From: Bacteroidales bacterium
Lineage (GTDB): Bacteria > Bacteroidota > Bacteroidia > Bacteroidales > P3
DNA length: 56,958 nucleotides
Reading direction: 5' to 3'
Assembly: GCA_009777915.1 (NCBI GenBank)
Contig: WRKV01000001.1
Span: forward strand, 1-56,958
Shown in pieces: positions 60 to 56,958 of the stretch (position 1 is its first letter; each line of letters opens with the position of its first letter). A program made the position numbers and the translations under genes. The notes under the pieces were generated by a model, which was given only the letters and a program-made list of their open reading frames with translations, made no database searches and had not been told where the DNA came from.

Positions 60-286
60 CGCCGCTACGCTCTGACATTTCCTGCGGTAACGTATTCGTC
101 GCTACGCTCCTCATAATTGATAACGCTTCGCCTCTCGCCCTGAAAGGGCAAAATCAATAACGTAGGGCAAAAAATTCTCCTCCTTTGGAGGAGTACGGCG
201 AAGCCGGGAGGTGGTTTATGACCATCGCTGGCGGGGTTTATGACCACCCCGGCACTTCGTGCCACCCCTCCAAAGGAGGGGAATTC
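60..286. repeat. mosaic of short intergenic repeat modules
   Basis: Direct repeats cgYcgctacgctc (x2) and ggtttatgacca (x2). Mini-hairpins ctcctcc-ttt-ggaggag (177-193) and cccctcc-aaa-ggagggg (265-281). GGCGAAGC core at 197-204 and its complement at 125-132. Confidence 0.6.
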
Positions 287-357
287 AATTTACGATTTAC
301 GGATTTACGATTTACTATTGGGCGAAGCGTAAATTGTACATTTGTAAATCGTACATT
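287..357. repeat. imperfect 'word' hairpin: 29-nt arms built of TTTACGA/GTAAATC-type heptads, loop containing GGCGAAGC
   Basis: Left arm aatttacgatttacggatttacgatttac. The reverse complement of the right arm is aatgtacgatttacaaatgtacaatttac (about 23/29 match). Loop tattgggcgaagc. The left arm recurs, inverted, at 56925-56958. Confidence 0.65.
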
Positions 358-360
358 GGA

Positions 361-395
361 ACGACTATTCACTAATCACTATTCACTAATCACTA
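361..395 (-). repeat. heptamer array TAGTGAT/TAGTGAA (about 4.5 units) starting at the stop codon of the FISUMP gene
   Basis: The minus strand reads TAG TGATTAG TGAATAG TGATTAG TGAATAG. The first TAG is the stop codon at 393-395. Stops occur in all three frames. Confidence 0.7.
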
Positions 396-1343
396 AGGTA
401 CATCCCGCACACAACGCAGGGAACGCCCGTAACCCTTGTTGCCCCAACCCTGCGGGTAGATATGGCCATTTGTATCGAAGGTAAAACGGAACCCAAGATC
501 CGTGTTGTTCTCCGACTGCGACCAGTAGACCTCGCTGAAATCTTGATTGTACAGCGAGCCGACCGAAGTGCAGAGGCCTCCGTAAGTACCACCCCACGTA
601 GTGAGATAGGTGTCAAGTTGAACCTGCCAAGACGTATCATTAACCGTTTCTTGATAACGATTCTGACCGTTAAAACCTAAAGCGATATCCAAGTTACGAA
701 AATCAGCAGAATCCGGAATTCGCCAACCATCAGGACAAATATTTTCTACTTCGGCAACAGCATGCCAAGAAAATAAATCACCTTTTTGGTAGGGATTGGA
801 GCGGCAATCAACATTGTAAGAACTCGTTGTAGAATTCCAACCACTAAAAGTGGCTTTACTACTACAATCAACCGTCTGAACAGCATCCGACCACTCTTGA
901 GTAATACCATTTCCGGGAATTTTCCAAGTGGAATCGGTGGCAAAAGAGGCTTTACCAAGAGATGTCTCCCAAATGGTTTCACTCACGGTTACAAGGCAAG
1001 TGGCGGTTTTTTCACCGTCTTGCGTGATAACAGTAATAGTTGCCGTGCCAATGGCAAGAGCAGTAAGTTTTCCGTTGACAACCGAAACGGTGTTGGGTGC
1101 ACTCGAAATCCACGATACGGTTTTGTTGCTTGCAGATACGGTTTTGTTGGTTATACTGTCGGGCAATACAGTAGCAATAAGCGTAAGCGTGTCACCAATG
1201 TTGAAGATGGCAGCAATGTGGTTCAGCGATACACCGGTAACAGGCACATAGGGTGTTTCTATGCTATTGGTGCTGGGCTCTTTGTCACAAGAAATTGCGA
1301 ATGCAAACGATAAAATCATCACAGAATAAAGGAATTTTTTCAT
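393..1343 (-). CDS. lipoprotein with Big_2-like Ig domain and C-terminal FISUMP (TIGR02145-like) domain
   Basis: 316-aa ORF with a signal peptide and lipobox (SFAFAISC). Ig-like segment VTGVSLN...ATITVITQDGEKTATCLVTV. FISUMP hallmarks CPDGWRIPDSADFRNL and terminal GRSLRCVRDVP. Confidence 0.8.
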   Translation of the reverse strand: MKKFLYSVMILSFAFAISCDKEPSTNSIETPYVPVTGVSLNHIAAIFNIGDTLTLIATVLPDSITNKTVSASNKTVSWISSAPNTVSVVNGKLTALAIGTATITVITQDGEKTATCLVTVSETIWETSLGKASFATDSTWKIPGNGITQEWSDAVQTVDCSSKATFSGWNSTTSSYNVDCRSNPYQKGDLFSWHAVAEVENICPDGWRIPDSADFRNLDIALGFNGQNRYQETVNDTSWQVQLDTYLTTWGGTYGGLCTSVGSLYNQDFSEVYWSQSENNTDLGFRFTFDTNGHIYPQGWGNKGYGRSLRCVRDVP

Positions 1344-1398: not shown

Positions 1399-1585
1399 AA
1401 AAAAAACGGACTTAACAAATCCGTCGCAGAGGTATTAGGAAACCCATATACAAGAATAAGCAAGCCCGCAGTGCAGGCGTTACAGTCTCTTGTATATTCA
1501 GAAATTCCTAATTTTCTACGACAAGAATAGCAACCGCTATATTATATTTTCGTTTATTTCATGGTTTGTTTTTTGGTTAAAATGT
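1399..1585 (-). promoter_or_regulatory. conserved structured 5' leader: mini-ORF ATGAAATAA, long hairpin, intrinsic terminator. Candidate attenuator, riboswitch or sRNA. Copy 1.
   Basis: Homologous to 54915-55108. Helices attaggaa/ttcctaat (1505-1512/1434-1441), atatacaaga/tcttgtatat (1488-1497/1446-1455) and apical gcctgc-act-gcgggc (1464-1478). Terminator acgga...tccgt plus T8 (1399-1424). Confidence 0.65.
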
Positions 1586-1589
1586 TTTG

Positions 1590-1597
1590 CAAAGGTA
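1590..1597 (-). promoter_or_regulatory. Bacteroidetes -7 promoter box TAccTTTG
   Basis: Match to TAnnTTTG upstream of the leader and FISUMP gene. Confidence 0.55.
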
Positions 1598-6840: not shown

Positions 6841-8601
6841 CTAACATTTTTTACAACCTGCTTTTTTAACAGCCGGTTTTTTTGCAGCAACTTTTTTTAC
6901 TGCCGGTTTTTTAGCGGCAACTTTTTTTGCCGGAGCTGCTTTTTTTACAACTTTTTTAGCTGGAGCTGCTTTTTTTACAACTTTCTTAGCCGGTGCTGCT
7001 TTTTTCACAACTTTCTTAGCCGGTGCTGCTTTTTTTACAACTTTCTTAGCCGGAGCTGCTTTTTTTACAACTTTTTTAGCCGGTGCTGCTTTTTTTACAA
7101 CTTTCTTAGCCGGTGCTGCTTTTTTTACAACTTTTTTAGCCGGTGCTGCTTTTTTTACAACTTTTTTTGCAGGAGCTGCTTTTTTCACAACTTTCTTAGC
7201 CGGTGCTGCTTTTTTTACAACTTTTTTAGCCGGTGCTGCTTTTTTTACAACTTTTTTTACTGCTGGTTTTTTTGCTGCTGCTTTTTTCGCAGCTGGTTTT
7301 TTTGTTTCCATTTTTTTTGTTTTTTTGGTTGATAATTTAAGTTTGTTAACGTTTGTATTTTGATCTCCTTTTACGGATACTTTTGCTTTTTGTTTCGTTT
7401 TGGTTTCATTTTTTTCATTTTTTCCTTCCAAACGAATGATGAAATCCGATAAGATATTCATGTAGTTTATGAATGCATCATAAGGCGAGGCATAATGGCT
7501 GAAATACTTGTGAACATCGGCACTTGCGAGCCATTTCGTACACATGTAATACAGATTGTCACTCGTTTGTAAAAAGCCAAAATCTTTGTGAATTTCGGGG
7601 TCTTTATTTTTTTCAATTTTTTCGGTTAATTCATACAATTTTGAAAAGGTTTCGTTTTGCAATTCGTTACCTAACCAAGCTGTCAAATCACGTTCTTCGT
7701 CTGCCCATGAAATTGGAAATGGAACATGCACAGGAGCCTTTGGTGTCAAGGCTTTGCTGATTTCGGAAGGTGTCGAAAATTTGAATTTTGTACGCTTAAA
7801 AACGATATCCGGCAACACTTTGAAAAAATCAAAAATTCCGGTTTCTTTCAATTGATGTTCGCCAAAAGTTTCGTAATCCAAAAAGATATTTACGACCTCT
7901 TCTTTTTTGCCGAGTTGCAAAATCCAATCCACGTATTTCTCAGCGGTGAGAGGCCATCCCTTCCATTGCTGATCCGAAAAACGGAATGCAATATCATCAC
8001 TCAATTGATAATTTCTGAGCAAGATATTCAACTTCGGATTAATCGCATTGCAATACAAATAATTTGGAGATTTCCAACCTAAAATATGTTTTGCTCCTTC
8101 TGTAAGCATAGTGTCAAAGCCCATTTTGGAAACTCTTGCTCCGATTTCATCGGAATAAATTAATTCGGTATTTCGAAACGTGGTTGGTTTTTTTCCAAAC
8201 AATTTTTCAATACGTTCGCTATGTTTTTTAACTTGTTTTTCGAATTCCGAAGTTTCATTCAAAGAGGCTAAAGAATGATAATACGTTTCGGCGATAAACT
8301 CGACTTGTCCGGTCTTTGCTAACTTTTTGAAACTATCCAAAACGTGTGGTGCATACCATTCGAATTGATCCAAAGCCACTCCCGAAATCGACAAACTGAC
8401 ATTGAATTTTTTGCCATGTTTTTTAATCAATTCTAAGAGTAAATTATTCATTGGAATATAACAACGATCGGCGATACGATTGACCAGATATTGGTTCTGA
8501 TAATCGTCGTAATAGTTGTGTGCAACGCCCATTTCGAAGAAACGATAGTTTCGCAATCGCAACGGCTGGTGTACTTGGAAATAAAAACACAGGGCATTCA
8601 T
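6841..8601 (-). CDS. glycoside hydrolase family 57 (alpha-amylase/branching-type) with C-terminal Lys/Ala/Pro-rich histone-H1-like repeat tail
   Basis: 586 aa. N-terminus LCFYFQVHQPLRLRNYRFFEMG is typical of Bacteroidetes GH57. The last ~170 aa are AAKKPAVKK/KKAAPAKKVV repeats ending KKAGCKKC. Confidence 0.85.
   Translation of the reverse strand: MNALCFYFQVHQPLRLRNYRFFEMGVAHNYYDDYQNQYLVNRIADRCYIPMNNLLLELIKKHGKKFNVSLSISGVALDQFEWYAPHVLDSFKKLAKTGQVEFIAETYYHSLASLNETSEFEKQVKKHSERIEKLFGKKPTTFRNTELIYSDEIGARVSKMGFDTMLTEGAKHILGWKSPNYLYCNAINPKLNILLRNYQLSDDIAFRFSDQQWKGWPLTAEKYVDWILQLGKKEEVVNIFLDYETFGEHQLKETGIFDFFKVLPDIVFKRTKFKFSTPSEISKALTPKAPVHVPFPISWADEERDLTAWLGNELQNETFSKLYELTEKIEKNKDPEIHKDFGFLQTSDNLYYMCTKWLASADVHKYFSHYASPYDAFINYMNILSDFIIRLEGKNEKNETKTKQKAKVSVKGDQNTNVNKLKLSTKKTKKMETKKPAAKKAAAKKPAVKKVVKKAAPAKKVVKKAAPAKKVVKKAAPAKKVVKKAAPAKKVVKKAAPAKKVVKKAAPAKKVVKKAAPAKKVVKKAAPAKKVVKKAAPAKKVVKKAAPAKKVVKKAAPAKKVAAKKPAVKKVAAKKPAVKKAGCKKC
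6931..7260 (-). repeat. in-frame tandem repeat, 11 units of exactly 30 nt (cggWgctgctttttYacaactttYttWgc), plus degenerate units on both sides (6871-7300)
   Basis: Units start at 6931, 6961, ... 7231. They differ only at a few synonymous positions. Each encodes KKAAPAKKVV. Confidence 0.95.
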
Positions 8602-22837: not shown

Positions 22838-22909
22838 AGGTTCCGAGCGGATTCGAACCGCTGTAAACGGTTTTGCAGACCGCTACCTAAGCCACTCGGT
22901 CACGGAACC
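22838..22909 (-). tRNA. tRNA-Cys (GCA)
   Basis: The reverse complement folds as a cloverleaf: acceptor ggttccg/cggaacc, anticodon loop ctGCAaa, T-loop ggttcgaatcc. Confidence 0.9.
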
Positions 22910-25277: not shown

Positions 25278-25478
25278 ATGGAACTGTTTCTGATAACACT
25301 CGGATTATTAGCGTTTGCTTTGGCAGGTATTGCTATAAAAATGCTCGTCAAAAAAGGCAGCGAATTCAAAAAACAATGCCTTACGATCGAATTTGAATCC
25401 GGCGAAAAAATAGGTTGTGTCTGCGATTCCCAACGCCATGAAGATTGCAGATACTACAATATCCACCATGGAAAATAA
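25278..25478 (+). CDS. small single-TM Cys-containing protein (NqrM-like layout; function unknown)
   Basis: 66 aa: one TM helix, then KK...C...GCVC...C. Tightly coupled to the upstream stop (1-nt gap). Confidence 0.4.
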   Translation: MELFLITLGLLAFALAGIAIKMLVKKGSEFKKQCLTIEFESGEKIGCVCDSQRHEDCRYYNIHHGK

Positions 25479-25538
25479 ATAGTAAATAGTAAATCGTAAA
25501 TAGTGAATAGTAAATAGTAAATAGTAAATAGTAAATAG
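25476..25538 (+). repeat. heptamer array TAAATAG x9 (variants TAAATCG, TGAATAG) starting at the gene's TAA stop codon
   Basis: Read directly. Stops occur in all three sense frames and none on the opposite strand. Confidence 0.9.
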
Positions 25539-25575
25539 TGTACACCCCACAAATAACCAAATCAACAATTAAACA

Positions 25576-32344: not shown

Positions 32345-32415
32345 CAGGGACAGAGGGACTCGAACCCCCGTCTACGGTTTTGGAGACCGCCATTCTACCA
32401 CTGAACTATGTCCCT
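32345..32415 (-). tRNA. tRNA-Trp (CCA)
   Basis: Cloverleaf on the minus strand: agggaca.../...tgtccct, anticodon loop ctCCAaa, T-loop ggttcgagtcc. Confidence 0.9.
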
Positions 32416-32422
32416 TTATGGA

Positions 32423-32450
32423 TAGGGGCGATGCATGCACCGCCCCTACA
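32423..32450. repeat. GC-rich palindromic element, copy a (TAGGGGCGATGCATGCACCGCCCCTACA)
   Basis: One of four related copies (see 34016, 53524 and 56793). Lies between tuf and tRNA-Trp. Confidence 0.8.
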
Positions 32451-32473
32451 TCACATTTTTATTTTTCGGATGA

Positions 32474-33661
32474 TTAATCCAAAATTTCAGTTACTTGACC
32501 TGCTCCTACGGTACGTCCACCTTCGCGGATAGCGAATTTAAGACCTTTTGCCATAGCGATTTCTGCAATCAAATTAACTTCGATAGTCAAGTTATCTCCG
32601 GGCATAACCATTTCCACGCCTGCAGGAAGAGAAATCTCTCCGGTTACGTCAGTTGTGCGGAAATAGAACTGTGGACGATACTTGTTGTGGAACGGCGTGT
32701 GACGTCCACCTTCGTTTTTACTCAAGATATAAACCTCAGCTTTGAAATGTTTGTGCGGTTTAACCGAACCCGGTTTGGCGATAACCATACCACGACGAAT
32801 TTCGTCTTTGTCGATACCACGCAACAACAAACCTGCGTTGTCACCGGCTTCACCACGGTCAAGAATTTTGCGGAACATTTCAACACCGGTTACAACCGAT
32901 TTGAGTTTTTCTGCACCCATACCAATGATATCAACAGGATCGCCCGAGTTGATAACTCCGGTTTCGATACGACCTGTAGCCACAGTACCACGACCTGTAA
33001 TCGAGAATACGTCTTCGATCGGCATCAAGAAATCTTTGTCAACGGCACGTTGTGGAAGTTCAATCCATGAGTCAACCGCTTCCATCAATTCCATGATTTT
33101 GTCTGACCATTGTGGTTCGAGGTTTAATCCACCCAATGCAGAACCGCGGATAACCGGTGTGTTGTCACCGTCGAATCCTTTTGCAGACAAAGCGTCGCGG
33201 ATTTCCATTTCAACGAGGTCTAACAACTCAGGGTCGTCAACCAAGTCAACTTTGTTCATAAACACAACCATACGAGGTACACCCACTTGTTGAGCCAAAA
33301 GGATGTGCTCGCGAGTTTGAGGCATCGGACCGTCGGTAGCAGCAACTACGAGGATTGCTCCGTCCATTTGTGCAGCACCGGTAATCATGTTTTTAATGTA
33401 GTCGGCGTGTCCCGGACAGTCTACGTGTGCGTAGTGACGAGTTTGTGTTTCATACTCAATGTGAGCTGTGTTAATGGTAATACCACGTTCTTTTTCTTCA
33501 GGTGCGTTGTCGATAGAGTCAAATGATTTTTTCTCTGACAATCCTTTTTCCGCCAATACTCCGGTAATAGCGGCTGTTAAGGTGGTTTTACCGTGGTCAA
33601 CGTGACCAATAGTTCCAATGTTTACGTGTGGTTTATCACGTTTAAAAGTTTCTTTTGCCAT
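32474..33661 (-). CDS. tuf: elongation factor Tu
   Basis: 395 aa. [18 protein letters not shown] and NKVD motifs. Near-universal EF-Tu sequence. Confidence 0.99.
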
Positions 33662-33758
33662 TTTATTTGTTTTTTAAGGTTATTATTTTGTTTTATTGTC
33701 GAGATGCACGATGCATCATTACTTTATTATATTGGTGACCGACCTGAGTCGAAGTCAG

Positions 33759-33830
<72 letters not shown>

Positions 33831-33834
33831 GGAG

Positions 33835-33907
33835 AGCGGAAGACGGGGCTCGAACCCGCCACCTTCGGCTTGGAAGGCCAACGCTCTACCAAATGAGCTA
33901 CTTCCGC
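33835..33907 (-). tRNA. tRNA-Gly (TCC)
   Basis: Acceptor gcggaag/cttccgc, anticodon loop ctTCCaa. Confidence 0.9.
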
Positions 33908-33917
33908 TTGTTGGTCG

Positions 33918-33999
33918 TGGGAGATGGTGGATTCGAACCACCGAAGGCGTCGCCAACAGATTTACAGTCTGTCCCCTTTGGCCACTCGGGTAATCTCCC
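33918..33999 (-). tRNA. tRNA-Tyr (GTA), long variable arm
   Basis: Acceptor gggagat/atctccc, anticodon loop ctGTAaa, variable arm ggcgacgccttc. Confidence 0.9.
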
Positions 34000-34015
34000 A
34001 ACGGTTTTTTTTTGC

Positions 34016-34049
34016 AAGGGCGAGGCGTGCCTTGCCCCTACATTTATCT
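34016..34049. repeat. GC-rich palindromic element, copy b (AAGGGCGAGGCGTGCCTTGCCCCTACA)
   Basis: Sits between tRNA-Thr(TGT) and tRNA-Tyr, inside the tRNA-tuf transcription unit. Confidence 0.75.
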
Positions 34050-34069
34050 ATGAACTATCCTTTTTTTTG

Positions 34070-34143
34070 AGCCGATGGAGGGATTCGAACCCCCGGCCAG
34101 CTGATTACAAATCAGCTGCTCTGGCCAACTGAGCTACATCGGC
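34070..34143 (-). tRNA. tRNA-Thr (TGT)
   Basis: Acceptor gccgatg/catcggc, anticodon loop ttTGTaa. Confidence 0.9.
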
Positions 34144-54902: not shown

Positions 54903-54910
54903 TATCTTTG
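54903..54910 (+). promoter_or_regulatory. -7 promoter box TAtcTTTG (leader plus FISUMP gene)
   Basis: tttttcgtatctttgcaaaaa, homologous to the box at 1590-1597 (minus strand). Confidence 0.55.
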
Positions 54911-54914
54911 CAAA

Positions 54915-55108
54915 AATTTTAACCAAAAACCAATTATGAAATAAACGAAAATATAAATAAACAATAGCGATTTGCTAATTCTTGCTATCGAAAATTACGA
55001 ACTTTCAAACTCACAAGAATAAGTGGACGCCTGCAATTGCGGGCTTATCTTATTTGTGAGTTGGGTTTCGTAATACCTTGATAGCGGATTTGAAAGTCCG
55101 CTTTTTTT
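54915..55108 (+). promoter_or_regulatory. conserved structured 5' leader: mini-ORF ATGAAATAA, long hairpin, intrinsic terminator. Candidate attenuator, riboswitch or sRNA. Copy 2.
   Basis: Mini-ORF at 54936-54944. Helices attacgaa/ttcgtaat (54994-55001/55067-55074), ctcaca..aataag/cttatt..tgtgag (55010-55023/55049-55060) and apical gcctgc-aatt-gcgggc (55029-55044). Terminator agcgga...tccgct plus T7 (55083-55108). Confidence 0.65.
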
Positions 55109-55153
55109 ATTGCCCTAAATCATAAATCATAAAACATAAACCATAAAATACCT

Positions 55154-56764
55154 ATGAAAAAAATCACCCTAACCTTAATCCTTGTCGCAAGTTTTGCAAC
55201 CCAAAGTTTTGCGTATTGTCCTATTCCGCAATGGTGTCCTGACGCCCCTTTGCATCAAATTCTCTGCCCTGGCGAGTCAATAGATGATATCGTATTTCCT
55301 TCGGTAATAGCTAAAACCCTGATCGTCACTTGGTGGACGAACGAGACACGCATCCATTCTTTTGAAAATCCTCCTCCGGGCATCACGGTTTCGGGCGACG
55401 CCTCGACTCCGCTCGGCGACCGGGAATACGCGTTTCCTGTTTCCATTAAAGGAGCACCAACAAATGCCGGCACCTACCACTATACCGTGAGCAATACCTG
55501 CGGCGTAGAGTTACTACACGGCAGCATCACTTTGGCACCACCAATACCTGCCACACCCGGAACCATAGCGTTTAGCAACAATCCTGTTTGCACGGGAGCT
55601 GAGTTTACAGCGAGCATTGCTGCTGTGAGCGGTGCAGCGACCTATAATTGGACTGTTCCGGGAAGTATGACCCACGACGGCAGCGATGGCACCACCATCG
55701 ACATTACCAATGCAGGCACTACAACAGGCAGTTTGGCTATTTCGGTAACGGCAAGCAACGCTTGTGGCACAAGTGCTCCAAGCACGCAAAATATCACCGT
55801 TAACGCAGCACCTACTATCGGCAACGTTACTCCCACAGGCGACCAAACCACAACGCAAAACGTCGCCTTTGCATCTACGCTCACCGTCAGTCCGCTACCC
55901 GCAGGCACTCCAACGCCTACTATTCAGTGGTATTCGAGCACATCGGCGAGCAGTGCAGCAGGAACAAGCGGCACAGCCGTGAGCGGAGCCACAGGCAACA
56001 CTTTCGATCCGCCAAATGATGTTGTAAACACCGACGGTGTATTCTACTATGCAGTAGCAACCAACTCTTGTGGAACGGCAACAACGGCTAATACCAGCGG
56101 AAAGCATATTGTGACCATGCCGCCACCACGCGGCTGCGATTTTGTGAATAGAGACAGTGCAAGAATCCTTTCGGGAGGTCCCGTAACAGATACTGTATGG
56201 ACTATTCCGGCTCGTGCAGGTGTGGCATCGCAGACCTGGTCGGATTTGGTTGTTTCGCCGCAATGCAACAAAACTGCCTATAACGGTGGATCATCTAGCA
56301 ACTTTATTTCGGATTGTAGAAACAACTCTACGCTTGTTGGTGCTACCAATGCGTTTCCGGGGCATTACTTTTCGTGGTGTGCGGTGATGCAGTATGCGGA
56401 TATTCTTTGTCCGGGTGATTGGCGAGTGCCAACAGCTGAGGATTTTCAAAATTTGTTTACGCTCATGGGTGGCACCACCAGTCGCAATCCATCCACAGTA
56501 ATCGACGGTCAATCTTACACTTCCGGCACCAATGCAGCTAATACTGCAGCAACCCACGTTCCTCGTGGCGGAACCTGGGGGGGCTCCCGCTTTACTGCGA
56601 GCGCGAGCTTTCTGACGGATGAGCGTTCGAGCTACTGGTCGTCCTCAGAGCAGAGCATCGCGAATGGGTTCGTCCTGACCTACGCTGGGTTGAGTCTCGT
56701 CCCGTACCACTACAACCCTAAGAATAACGGGTTCGCCCTGCGGTGTGTGAGGGATGTGCCATAG
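55154..56764 (+). CDS. secreted multi-Ig/PKD-like repeat protein with C-terminal FISUMP (TIGR02145-like) domain
   Basis: 536 aa with a signal peptide. Cys-containing Ig/PKD-like repeats (..ATYNWTVPG..ASNACGTS.., ..FYYAVATNSCGTA..). C-terminal CPGDWRVPTAEDFQNL ... NNGFALRCVRDVP. Confidence 0.8.
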   Translation: MKKITLTLILVASFATQSFAYCPIPQWCPDAPLHQILCPGESIDDIVFPSVIAKTLIVTWWTNETRIHSFENPPPGITVSGDASTPLGDREYAFPVSIKGAPTNAGTYHYTVSNTCGVELLHGSITLAPPIPATPGTIAFSNNPVCTGAEFTASIAAVSGAATYNWTVPGSMTHDGSDGTTIDITNAGTTTGSLAISVTASNACGTSAPSTQNITVNAAPTIGNVTPTGDQTTTQNVAFASTLTVSPLPAGTPTPTIQWYSSTSASSAAGTSGTAVSGATGNTFDPPNDVVNTDGVFYYAVATNSCGTATTANTSGKHIVTMPPPRGCDFVNRDSARILSGGPVTDTVWTIPARAGVASQTWSDLVVSPQCNKTAYNGGSSSNFISDCRNNSTLVGATNAFPGHYFSWCAVMQYADILCPGDWRVPTAEDFQNLFTLMGGTTSRNPSTVIDGQSYTSGTNAANTAATHVPRGGTWGGSRFTASASFLTDERSSYWSSSEQSIANGFVLTYAGLSLVPYHYNPKNNGFALRCVRDVP

Positions 56765-56845
56765 TGGATAGTGATTAGTGAATAGTGATTAGTAGGGGCG
56801 AGGCATGCGTCGCCCGATAGTGATTAGTGATTAGTGAATAGCGAA
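56762..56845 (+). repeat. heptamer arrays TAGTGGA/TAGTGAT/TAGTGAA starting at the stop codon, interrupted by GC-rich palindromic element copy d (56793-56819)
   Basis: Read directly as TAGTGGA TAGTGAT TAGTGAA TAGTGAT TAG-GGGCGAGGCATGCGTCGCCCG-A TAGTGAT TAGTGAT TAGTGAA TAGCGAA. Confidence 0.85.
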
Positions 56846-56846
56846 A

Positions 56847-56924
56847 CGTCATTGCGAGGGCAACGCCCGAAGCAATCCACAATAGCAAATAGATTGCTTC
56901 GCCACTGCGTGGCTCGCAATGACG
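56847..56924. repeat. nested hairpin (outer arms cgtcattgcgag/ctcgcaatgacg, inner arms cgaagcaatc/gattgcttcg)
   Basis: Both arm pairs are exact reverse complements. Contains the complement of GGCGAAGC at 56896-56903. Confidence 0.75.
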
Positions 56925-56958
56925 GTAAATCGTAAATCCGTAAATTGTAAATTGAATT
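56925..56958. repeat. GTAAATC/GTAAATT heptad words; inverted copy of 281-315; truncated by the window edge
   Basis: The reverse complement, aattcaatttacaatttacggatttacgatttac, differs from gaattcaatttacgatttacggatttacgatttac at one position. Confidence 0.8.

Follow-up and report, generated by a model that had tools for sequence, protein, structure and literature searches.

Two genes for FISUMP-domain proteins in a Bacteroidales genome are each preceded by a long, non-coding block of similar sequence, which raises the question of whether this block is an RNA and, if so, whether it controls the gene behind it. The stretch of DNA analysed here (the window) is the entire 56,958-bp contig WRKV01000001.1 of assembly GCA_009777915.1, in which the element occupies positions 1399-1597 on the minus strand (copy 1) and 54903-55153 on the plus strand (copy 2). 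To our knowledge, very few cis-regulatory RNAs have been described in Bacteroidota besides the widespread riboswitches, and almost nothing is known about post-initiation control of paralogous surface-protein families in this phylum, of which the FISUMP lipoproteins are an example. A preliminary description of the window had proposed a conserved structured leader RNA with compensatory changes in its helices. Our analysis establishes that the element is a genuine selected RNA structure. From its anatomy we infer regulation in cis, and we consider it moderately probable that the element represents a new family of leaders through which uncultured Bacteroidales would subject genes for exported and surface proteins to conditional intrinsic termination.

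The two copies have one order of parts in common, namely a -7 box, an A-rich 5' part with a tiny open reading frame (ORF), a small hairpin (H1), a long hairpin (P1-P4), a terminator, a spacer and the gene. The features of copy 1, all on the minus strand, are as follows.

1399-1597, minus: copy 1, whole element, from sequence reading
1590-1597, minus: -7 box TAccTTTG of the Bacteroidota type, with a predicted transcript start about 6-8 nucleotides (nt) downstream
1541-1583, minus: A-rich single-stranded 5' region with the invariant block AUGAAAUAAACGAAAAUAUAA, from single-sequence folds
1554-1562, minus: tiny ORF AUG AAA UAA (Met-Lys-stop), ATGAAATAA, with A at position -3
1527-1540, minus: H1, AUAGC-GGUU-GCUAU, followed by the conserved linker UCUU, from folds
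1423-1522, minus: long hairpin P1-P4, about 100 nt, from folds and covariation
1515-1522/1423-1430, minus: helix P1
1505-1512/1434-1441, minus: helix P2
about 1480-1497/1446-1460, minus: helix P3
1473-1479/1463-1469, minus: helix P4
1399-1423, minus: predicted intrinsic terminator, (C)GGAUUU-GUU-AAGUCC(G) plus U8, from a terminator scan and folds
1344-1398, minus: A-rich spacer of 55 nt without a TAnnTTTG box, which would be the 5' untranslated region (UTR) of the gene if read through
393-1343, minus: downstream gene, a lipoprotein of 316 amino acids (aa) with Big_2 and FISUMP (Fib_succ_major) domains

Those of copy 2 lie on the plus strand.

54903-55153, plus: copy 2, whole element, from sequence reading
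54903-54910, plus: -7 box TAtcTTTG
54936-54944, plus: tiny ORF AUG AAA UAA
54965-54977, plus: H1, UAGC-GAUUU-GCUA, from folds
54984-55085, plus: long hairpin P1-P4, with P1 formed by GCUAUCGA/UUGAUAGC, from folds and covariation
55083-55108, plus: predicted intrinsic terminator AGCGGAUUUGAAAGUCCGCU, overlapping the last bases of P1, from a terminator scan
55109-55153, plus: A-rich spacer without a promoter box
55154-56764, plus: downstream gene, an exported 536-aa protein with PKD_6 and FISUMP domains

The TAccTTTG box, ATGAAATAA, the terminator, its T8 run, the 55-nt spacer and the ATG at 1343 all lie where the preliminary description had placed them. The long hairpin of copy 1 is likewise present, with a length of about 100 nt (1522-1423) in place of the roughly 90 nt first described. 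The recurrence of this architecture at 54903-55153 is also borne out, since the two leaders are 82-84% identical and the scan called a terminator at 55083-55102. In copy 1 the terminator hairpin (1423-1407) abuts the 3' strand of P1 and continues into the T8 run at 1406-1399; in copy 2 the hairpin at 55083-55102 is followed by a U7 run at 55102-55108. The 5' region of copy 1 is unpaired in single-sequence folds except for pairing between an A-run and the U tract. Judging by its sequence, the copy 1 -7 box is a putative promoter; its context, TTTTCGTAyCTTTGCAAA, recurs before many genes of the window (repeat families D2 and D3), and most matches to the TAnnTTTG box in the window fall within genes. 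The proteins encoded behind the two leaders are 35% identical, a similarity confined to the FISUMP domain, which is C-terminal in both and is joined to different N-terminal domains (Big_2 versus PKD_6). Exact-protein look-ups of both, and of P0004 and P0005, matched no record.

Further members were obtained from metagenomes by two routes. A scan with a two-block pattern that placed no constraint on P1-P3, H1, the terminator or the ATG returned L114, L115, L116 and L117a, and nhmmer together with a covariance model (R1) returned the diverged members L117:9300-9493 (L117b) and L118:437-646. The dataset thus comprises eight distinct sequences in three lineages, of which six come from metagenome contigs and two of these six are strongly diverged. 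L114 and L115 recur in another sample as L120 and L121, and L110, reached through its protein, carries a leader identical to copy 1. Building a covariance model and searching related contigs, as the preliminary description had proposed, yielded further members that show covariation too. Related proteins are annotated as coming from metagenome-assembled genomes of Bacteroidales, and a paper on the gut metagenomes of higher termites cites one related JGI sample, 3300010369. A scan of a genome collection with the AT-rich 18-mer ATGAAATAAACGAAAATA gave at least 109 matches in unrelated taxa, among which nhmmer recognised no homolog. In viral contigs the terminator 24-mer had no match, and the 5' block with the linker was found at 11 loci, none of which fitted the model. 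Neither the rest of the window nor related contigs totalling about 200 kb held further copies.

Folded singly, copy 1 and copy 2 reach z-scores of -6.0 and -5.7 against dinucleotide shuffles, values for the tested members range from -5.7 to -6.7, and each of the eight sequences folded alone arrives at the same architecture of H1, P1-P4 and terminator. The alignment of the eight sequences was fitted to the model, which favours pairing, and the independent single-sequence folds agree with it; 91.5% of its pair cells hold standard pairs, compared with 34-42% when partners are slid by 1-3 columns. Both sides have changed at 23 of the 48 pairs (6/8 in P1, 6/8 in P2 and 7/10 in P3), none of 500 shuffles matched the observed covariation score, and covariation is also present in a seven-sequence version of the alignment. 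H1 covaries between the lineages as well (UAGC/GCUA, AAGC/GCUU and AGCG/CGCU). The proposal of a selected RNA structure has therefore held, with folds beyond chance and covariation that persists on addition of six homologs. The compensatory helix changes first quoted between the two copies are correct, and covariation is greatest in an additional basal helix that had not been described, P1 (GUCGUAGA/UCUGCGAC in copy 1 versus GCUAUCGA/UUGAUAGC in copy 2). G-U pairs outnumber A-C oppositions by 28 to 5, an excess which implies that the structure is selected in the RNA of the gene's strand and not in the DNA or in the opposite strand.

Conservation is distributed unevenly along the element. All eight members have an asymmetric internal loop between P1 and P2, 5'-AA facing 5'-ACC, and the loop that separates P2 from P3, UUU/GGG(U), is largely retained. 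Within the main lineage, identity amounts to 92% in H1, 91% in the linker, 100% in the AA/ACC loop, 93.5% in the terminator and 97% in the U tract, and H1, the linker, the loop and the terminator were outside the search pattern. Helices P1-P3 of the same lineage are 50-68% identical and evolve by compensation. Main-lineage members are on pairwise comparison 87% identical in the 5' single-stranded region, of which the search pattern had fixed 13 nt, and this region is poorly conserved across the three lineages. The apical hairpin, initially regarded as almost invariant, is so only within the main lineage, for which the P4 stem was part of the search pattern; it has been swapped wholesale in L117b and L118 (UUCACG/CGUGAA and CUCACGG/CCGUGGG). 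We also observed that the terminator scan scored apical P4 with the U-rich 3' strand of P3 as terminator-like (window 1464-1478 and 55029-55044), and that the same is true of the diverged members, which have a GC-rich tip followed by CUUUUA/UUGACUUAU; P4 plus this strand could be a pause site during folding.

The relation of the element to the genes behind it is equally regular. In seven of the eight distinct members, an ORF that encodes a signal peptide follows on the same strand at a distance of 23-55 nt, and these ORFs belong to two unrelated families. FISUMP lipoprotein genes follow copy 1, L110, copy 2 and L116, so the association first proposed is correct for both copies in the window; it is not specific to FISUMP, since four of the eight members (L114, L115, L117a and L118) precede an unannotated family with a signal peptide and a weak resemblance to outer-membrane protein (OMP) beta-barrels. 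No TAnnTTTG box was found in the spacer between U tract and start codon in any of the seven members, and in all eight a predicted terminator, consisting of a hairpin and a U tract, directly follows the folded domain. A gene without a promoter of its own would be expressed only when RNA polymerase reads through. A sigma70-like TTGAAA-16-TATAAT sequence in the copy 1 spacer was set aside, as the other copies lack it and it is not the Bacteroidota promoter type. In the FISUMP homologs P0013 and P0018 the element is absent and a plain promoter is followed by a UTR of about 30 nt, which marks the leader as an add-on module and not a trait of the FISUMP family. The first 35 nt or so of the leader resemble an ordinary UTR followed by 'AUG AAA' (TTTGCAAAAAAAATCAAACCAAAAACACAATCTGCATGAAAAAC in L134 versus TTTGCAAAACATTTTAACCAAAAAACAAACCATGAAATAA); the hairpin-terminator module may therefore have originated through an insertion or duplication at the start of a gene.

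The OMP-like genes are located at L115:1050-1919, L117:308-1198, L117:1208-2116 and L118:668-2349. Their products share a near-identical basic C-terminal tail, ...QKRKVSNTVPCYAYPQQRG(S/K)ESKIFNRPNEMR, are 41-62% identical over the remainder, and have no Pfam or NCBIfam family. A public gene call for one of them, P0126 (L121:261-1307; also L115:873-1919), opens at a TTG within the leader and traverses the hairpin and terminator into the real gene, giving a spurious product of 348 aa; the true start of the L121 gene is likely the ATG at L121:438.

How might such an element act? On the attenuator model that we favour, transcription would begin at an ordinary TAnnTTTG promoter and the nascent RNA would present an unstructured A-rich segment containing a two-codon ORF, after which H1 and then the 100-nt P1-P4 hairpin would form. 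The polymerase would at once reach the terminator hairpin and its U7-8 tract, and the gene, 23-55 nt further on, would be made only upon read-through. In the alternative state, the pyrimidine-rich stretch 5' of P1, together with H1, would pair with the 5' arm of the terminator, thereby lengthening P1 and abolishing the terminator hairpin. Promoter use, termination, alternative pairing and regulation are all deduced from sequence and folding. The calculated terminator and antiterminator folds lie 0.3-3.3 kcal/mol apart in seven members, the antiterminated fold is the minimum free energy structure for four of the eight (copy 2, L115, L117b and L118), and in L118 only 6 of 300 shuffled 5' elements pair equally well. 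On these calculations a switch between terminator and antiterminator is no more than plausible. Sequence constraint beside drifting helices is expected where a sequence has more than one partner or is read by a factor, and the combination of a constrained H1, AA/ACC loop and terminator with drifting P1-P3 helices would support such an arrangement.

The 5' part offers a possible input. A tiny ORF of 2, 3 or 5 codons is present in all eight members, reading AUG AAU AAA UAA in L118 and AUG ACA AAA AUG UGC UGA in L117b, and the AUG is retained in all four homologs found by the two-block scan of metagenomes, though it was outside the search pattern; by a rough estimate, the probability of a chance AUG in three lineages is about 0.04, which is not very unlikely. 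Start sites in Bacteroidota are selected within unstructured A-rich RNA, with A favoured at -3 and stray AUGs avoided nearby (PMC6847099). Given the A at -3 and the rarity of stray AUGs near such starts, ribosomes probably engage the tiny ORF. No codons that would report on a regulated pathway were found in it, the main-lineage peptide being Met-Lys and the downstream genes encoding surface proteins. As candidate triggers of read-through we would rank a trans-acting protein first, ribosome occupancy of the tiny ORF second and a small ligand third; the protein would recognise H1 with its linker, the invariant AA/ACC loop and the terminator.

Several results weigh against conditional termination by this route. 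For the main lineage and L117b, equally good pairing with the terminator arm is reached by 14-22% of shuffled 5' elements, none of the 12 antiterminator pairs shows a compensatory change, and a Fisher combination of the shuffle support over the three lineages reaches only p of about 0.02. All comparisons draw on only eight distinct sequences from very few samples. The stop of the tiny ORF lies 14-23 nt before H1 and does not overlap the competing helices, so that a ribosome on the tiny ORF would not directly cover the switching sequences. L117b (L117:9300-9493) has no ORF directly behind it and another promoter about 130 nt on, and L114 and L115 follow the stop codon of a HEPN gene and have only a near-match, AAAATTTG, in place of a good -7 box. 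A clamp on the U tract by the A-run at the tiny-ORF stop (AAACG/CGUUU, AAAACC/GGUUUU or AAAAGC/GCUUUU) was not established either: RNAduplex comparison with shuffles gave p values of 0.2-0.65 in the main lineage and of 0.04-0.06 in two diverged members, and in L118 the site that pairs best with the U tract is a different A-run.

Another possibility is a free-standing or 5' UTR-derived small RNA (sRNA) of about 185-220 nt that acts in trans and is only loosely coupled to the gene, an explanation that we regard as unlikely while giving it some weight. In such an sRNA the A-rich 5' strand would be a seed, or would act as a decoy that draws off ribosomes, RNAs rich in U or an RNA-binding protein, and the long hairpin and terminator would confer stability. 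The predicted promoter and strong terminator of its own, the high conservation of the 5' single-stranded block and the diverged, structurally intact L117b with no gene directly downstream would all suit it, and Bacteroides has multi-copy sRNA families with sigma-ABfr promoters (FopS/GibS; PMC11697453). However, a loosely coupled sRNA does not account for seven of eight members being fixed in strand and in distance (23-55 nt) relative to a promoterless ORF, in two families; its 5' region, poorly conserved between lineages, is unlike a seed, and the start regions of Bacteroidota mRNAs are themselves A-rich and would offer an A-rich seed no pairing partner. Terminated leaders can also act in trans, so the sRNA and the attenuating leader are not mutually exclusive.

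The same anatomy might belong to a constitutive structured 5' UTR that senses nothing and serves as a stabiliser, a processing site or a leaky insulator-terminator setting a fixed low expression, with the tiny ORF as a relic of an older gene start. The likeness of the first 35 nt or so to the UTR and start of FISUMP genes that lack the leader fits this idea, as does an alternative fold without statistical support. A stabiliser, though, needs no canonical hairpin with U8 terminator directly before the gene, a constitutive role does not require H1, the AA/ACC loop and the terminator to be constrained while helices drift, and the tiny ORF has been retained in three lineages despite large sequence change; we consider a constitutive UTR improbable.

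It is very improbable that the block is a DNA-level repeat maintained through copying or gene conversion and not through RNA function, whether as a palindromic mobile element (like a miniature inverted-repeat transposable element (MITE), a repetitive extragenic palindromic (REP) sequence or an enterobacterial repetitive intergenic consensus (ERIC) sequence), as a site resembling integron attC or as a block of homology at which cassettes recombine among surface-protein genes. In favour of a DNA-level repeat, the two FISUMP genes share 3' flanks, L110 matches copy 1 at 100% over about 600 nt before diverging, contigs break at the leader or its promoter, and different leader lineages share promoter regions. 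Against it, the helices differ at many positions and yet remain paired, with the strand-specific G-U bias given above, which a DNA palindrome would not be expected to show; the orientation and position relative to promoter, terminator and ORF are single, the window and the related contigs hold no additional copies, and a scan of 30 window ORFs revealed neither an integrase nor a transposase. MITE, REP and ERIC elements in particular were rejected on the grounds of only two copies in 57 kb, the strongly different helices and the G-U excess. For attC, P1 of the main lineage (GTCGTAGA, GTTTCAGA and others) lacks the cores RYYYAAC/GTTRRRY, and the element stands upstream of ORFs behind a promoter and not downstream of cassette ORFs, with no integrase in the 30 ORFs. 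Recombination does appear to occur at these loci, as indicated by the shared 3' flanks and the mosaic L110, but it does not explain strand-specific compensatory pairing.

The attenuating leader that we favour has no catalogued counterpart, in agreement with the preliminary description, which had recognised no known class. Rfam 15 at gathering thresholds finds only tRNAs in the window, and permissive scans of both copies and five homolog loci gave inconsistent matches of 27 bits at most. Two of these were examined and rejected: the nqrA-II motif (RF04310; 25.4 bits against a gathering threshold of 55), which matched copy 2 only and was driven by a long hairpin or a terminator, and the L20 leader (RF00558; 19.7-26.7 bits against 58.7), driven by the P4 hairpin and terminator. 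Full-text literature searches for an RNA motif tied to TIGR02145/FISUMP genes returned nothing. We conclude that the structured RNA family is genuine and previously uncatalogued.

Its layout nevertheless has relatives. Like T-box and PyrR-binding leaders, orphan riboswitch candidates and Bacteroid-trp, one of the few leaders that Rfam lists for Bacteroidota, it is promoter-proximal, on the gene's strand and ahead of a gene without its own promoter, and it resembles intrinsic-terminator attenuators and riboswitch-type leaders in having a covarying folded domain followed immediately by a hairpin and U-tract terminator. It differs from riboswitch-type leaders in that the putative sensor consists of a single long, irregular hairpin in which very few unpaired bases are conserved, the products of the genes are surface lipoproteins or OMP-like proteins and do not have metabolic or transport functions, the antiterminator lacks covariation and no Rfam model matches. 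With leader-peptide attenuators and start-stop upstream ORFs it shares a very short ORF in an unstructured A-rich region before a terminator; unlike leader-peptide attenuators, its ORF has 2-5 codons, carries no informative regulatory codons and does not overlap competing helices.

Precedents for a protein that reads such a leader are the specialised NusG paralogs, UpxY in Bacteroides and LoaP in Firmicutes. Their systems have long 5' leaders with terminators before cell-surface loci, and the protein that recognises the leader element grants read-through. They serve long polysaccharide or antibiotic operons in which the paralog gene lies within the locus, whereas the genes here are single or paired, and no NusG paralog was found among the 30 ORFs scanned in the window. 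Among trans-acting RNAs, FopS/GibS of Bacteroides thetaiotaomicron are multi-copy sRNAs with sigma-ABfr promoters; the FopS RNAs are about 65-70 nt long, mostly intergenic or antisense, and target susC start regions through a 5' seed (R1/R1') (PMC11697453). Several copies per genome, a Bacteroidota promoter with an intrinsic terminator and a link to outer-membrane proteins are common to them and to our element; compared with FopS/GibS as described, the RNA here is about 190 nt long, A-rich at the 5' end and fixed directly before an ORF.

A more specific proposal, which we offer as speculation with a low probability, is that the leaders constitute a new class of attenuator, acting on surface-protein genes, in Bacteroidota, which lack Shine-Dalgarno sequences: the switch would be flipped either by the tiny ORF and its A-rich pad, reporting ribosome availability, or by a protein that binds the AA/ACC loop and H1, and the 190-nt terminated product might also act in trans. 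As a candidate, attenuation of this kind would work without Shine-Dalgarno-based ribosome positioning. The unusually clean covariation and the presence of two unrelated exported-protein families give the element value as a concrete and testable way into the question of how Bacteroidales of the gut adjust their surface. A model of the element would also improve annotation, as gene callers have already called it as coding (P0126).

Several further observations concern the surroundings of the leaders. The 3' flanks common to the two FISUMP genes lie at window 279-396 (minus) and 56762-56958 (plus), so that, with the leaders at the 5' side, each variable FISUMP coding region is bracketed by conserved non-coding blocks. 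Heptad repeats, TAGTGAT/TAGTGAA, immediately follow the FISUMP stop codons, with GTAAATCGTAAATCCGTAAATYGTAAATTGAATT further on, and the contig terminates precisely within the repeat 3' of the copy 2 FISUMP gene. L110:1-1200, from another sample, is 100% identical to window 1562-393 for about 600 nt (the leader and the Big_2 half); its FISUMP domain is about 75% identical to that behind copy 1, and the sequence beyond the stop is unrelated. Such a mosaic points to recombination, or to a targeted diversification of the lectin-like domain at the C-terminus. L116:39-100 and L117:9215-9275, from one sample and belonging to different leader lineages, have near-identical promoter regions over about 55 nt that part ways at the transcript start; promoters and leaders are thus apparently shuffled as modules. 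Downstream of the copy 2 gene (window 56792-56816) there is a GC-rich motif, GTAGGGGCGAGGCATGC...CGCCC. It occurs again at L118:372-400, where the L118 leader transcript starts with it as a perfect 5' hairpin (GTAGGGGCG/CGCCCCTAC), and could represent a small repeated element.

The remaining genes of the window, among them AnmK, MurF, GyrB, trigger factor, ClpP, HutU and PorP/SprF, are the housekeeping set of a Bacteroidales that has a type IX secretion system. An intergenic array of nine tandem TAAATAG units at 25476-25539 resembles the heptads behind the FISUMP genes. A GH57 glycoside-hydrolase gene (6841-8601, minus) carries in its 3' part about 11 tandem copies of a 30-nt repeat with 92% matching (6847-7304), which encode a Lys/Ala-rich tail like that of histone H1/HC2. 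A cluster of five tRNA genes lies at 32345-34143 (minus), and a sixth tRNA gene at 22838-22909.

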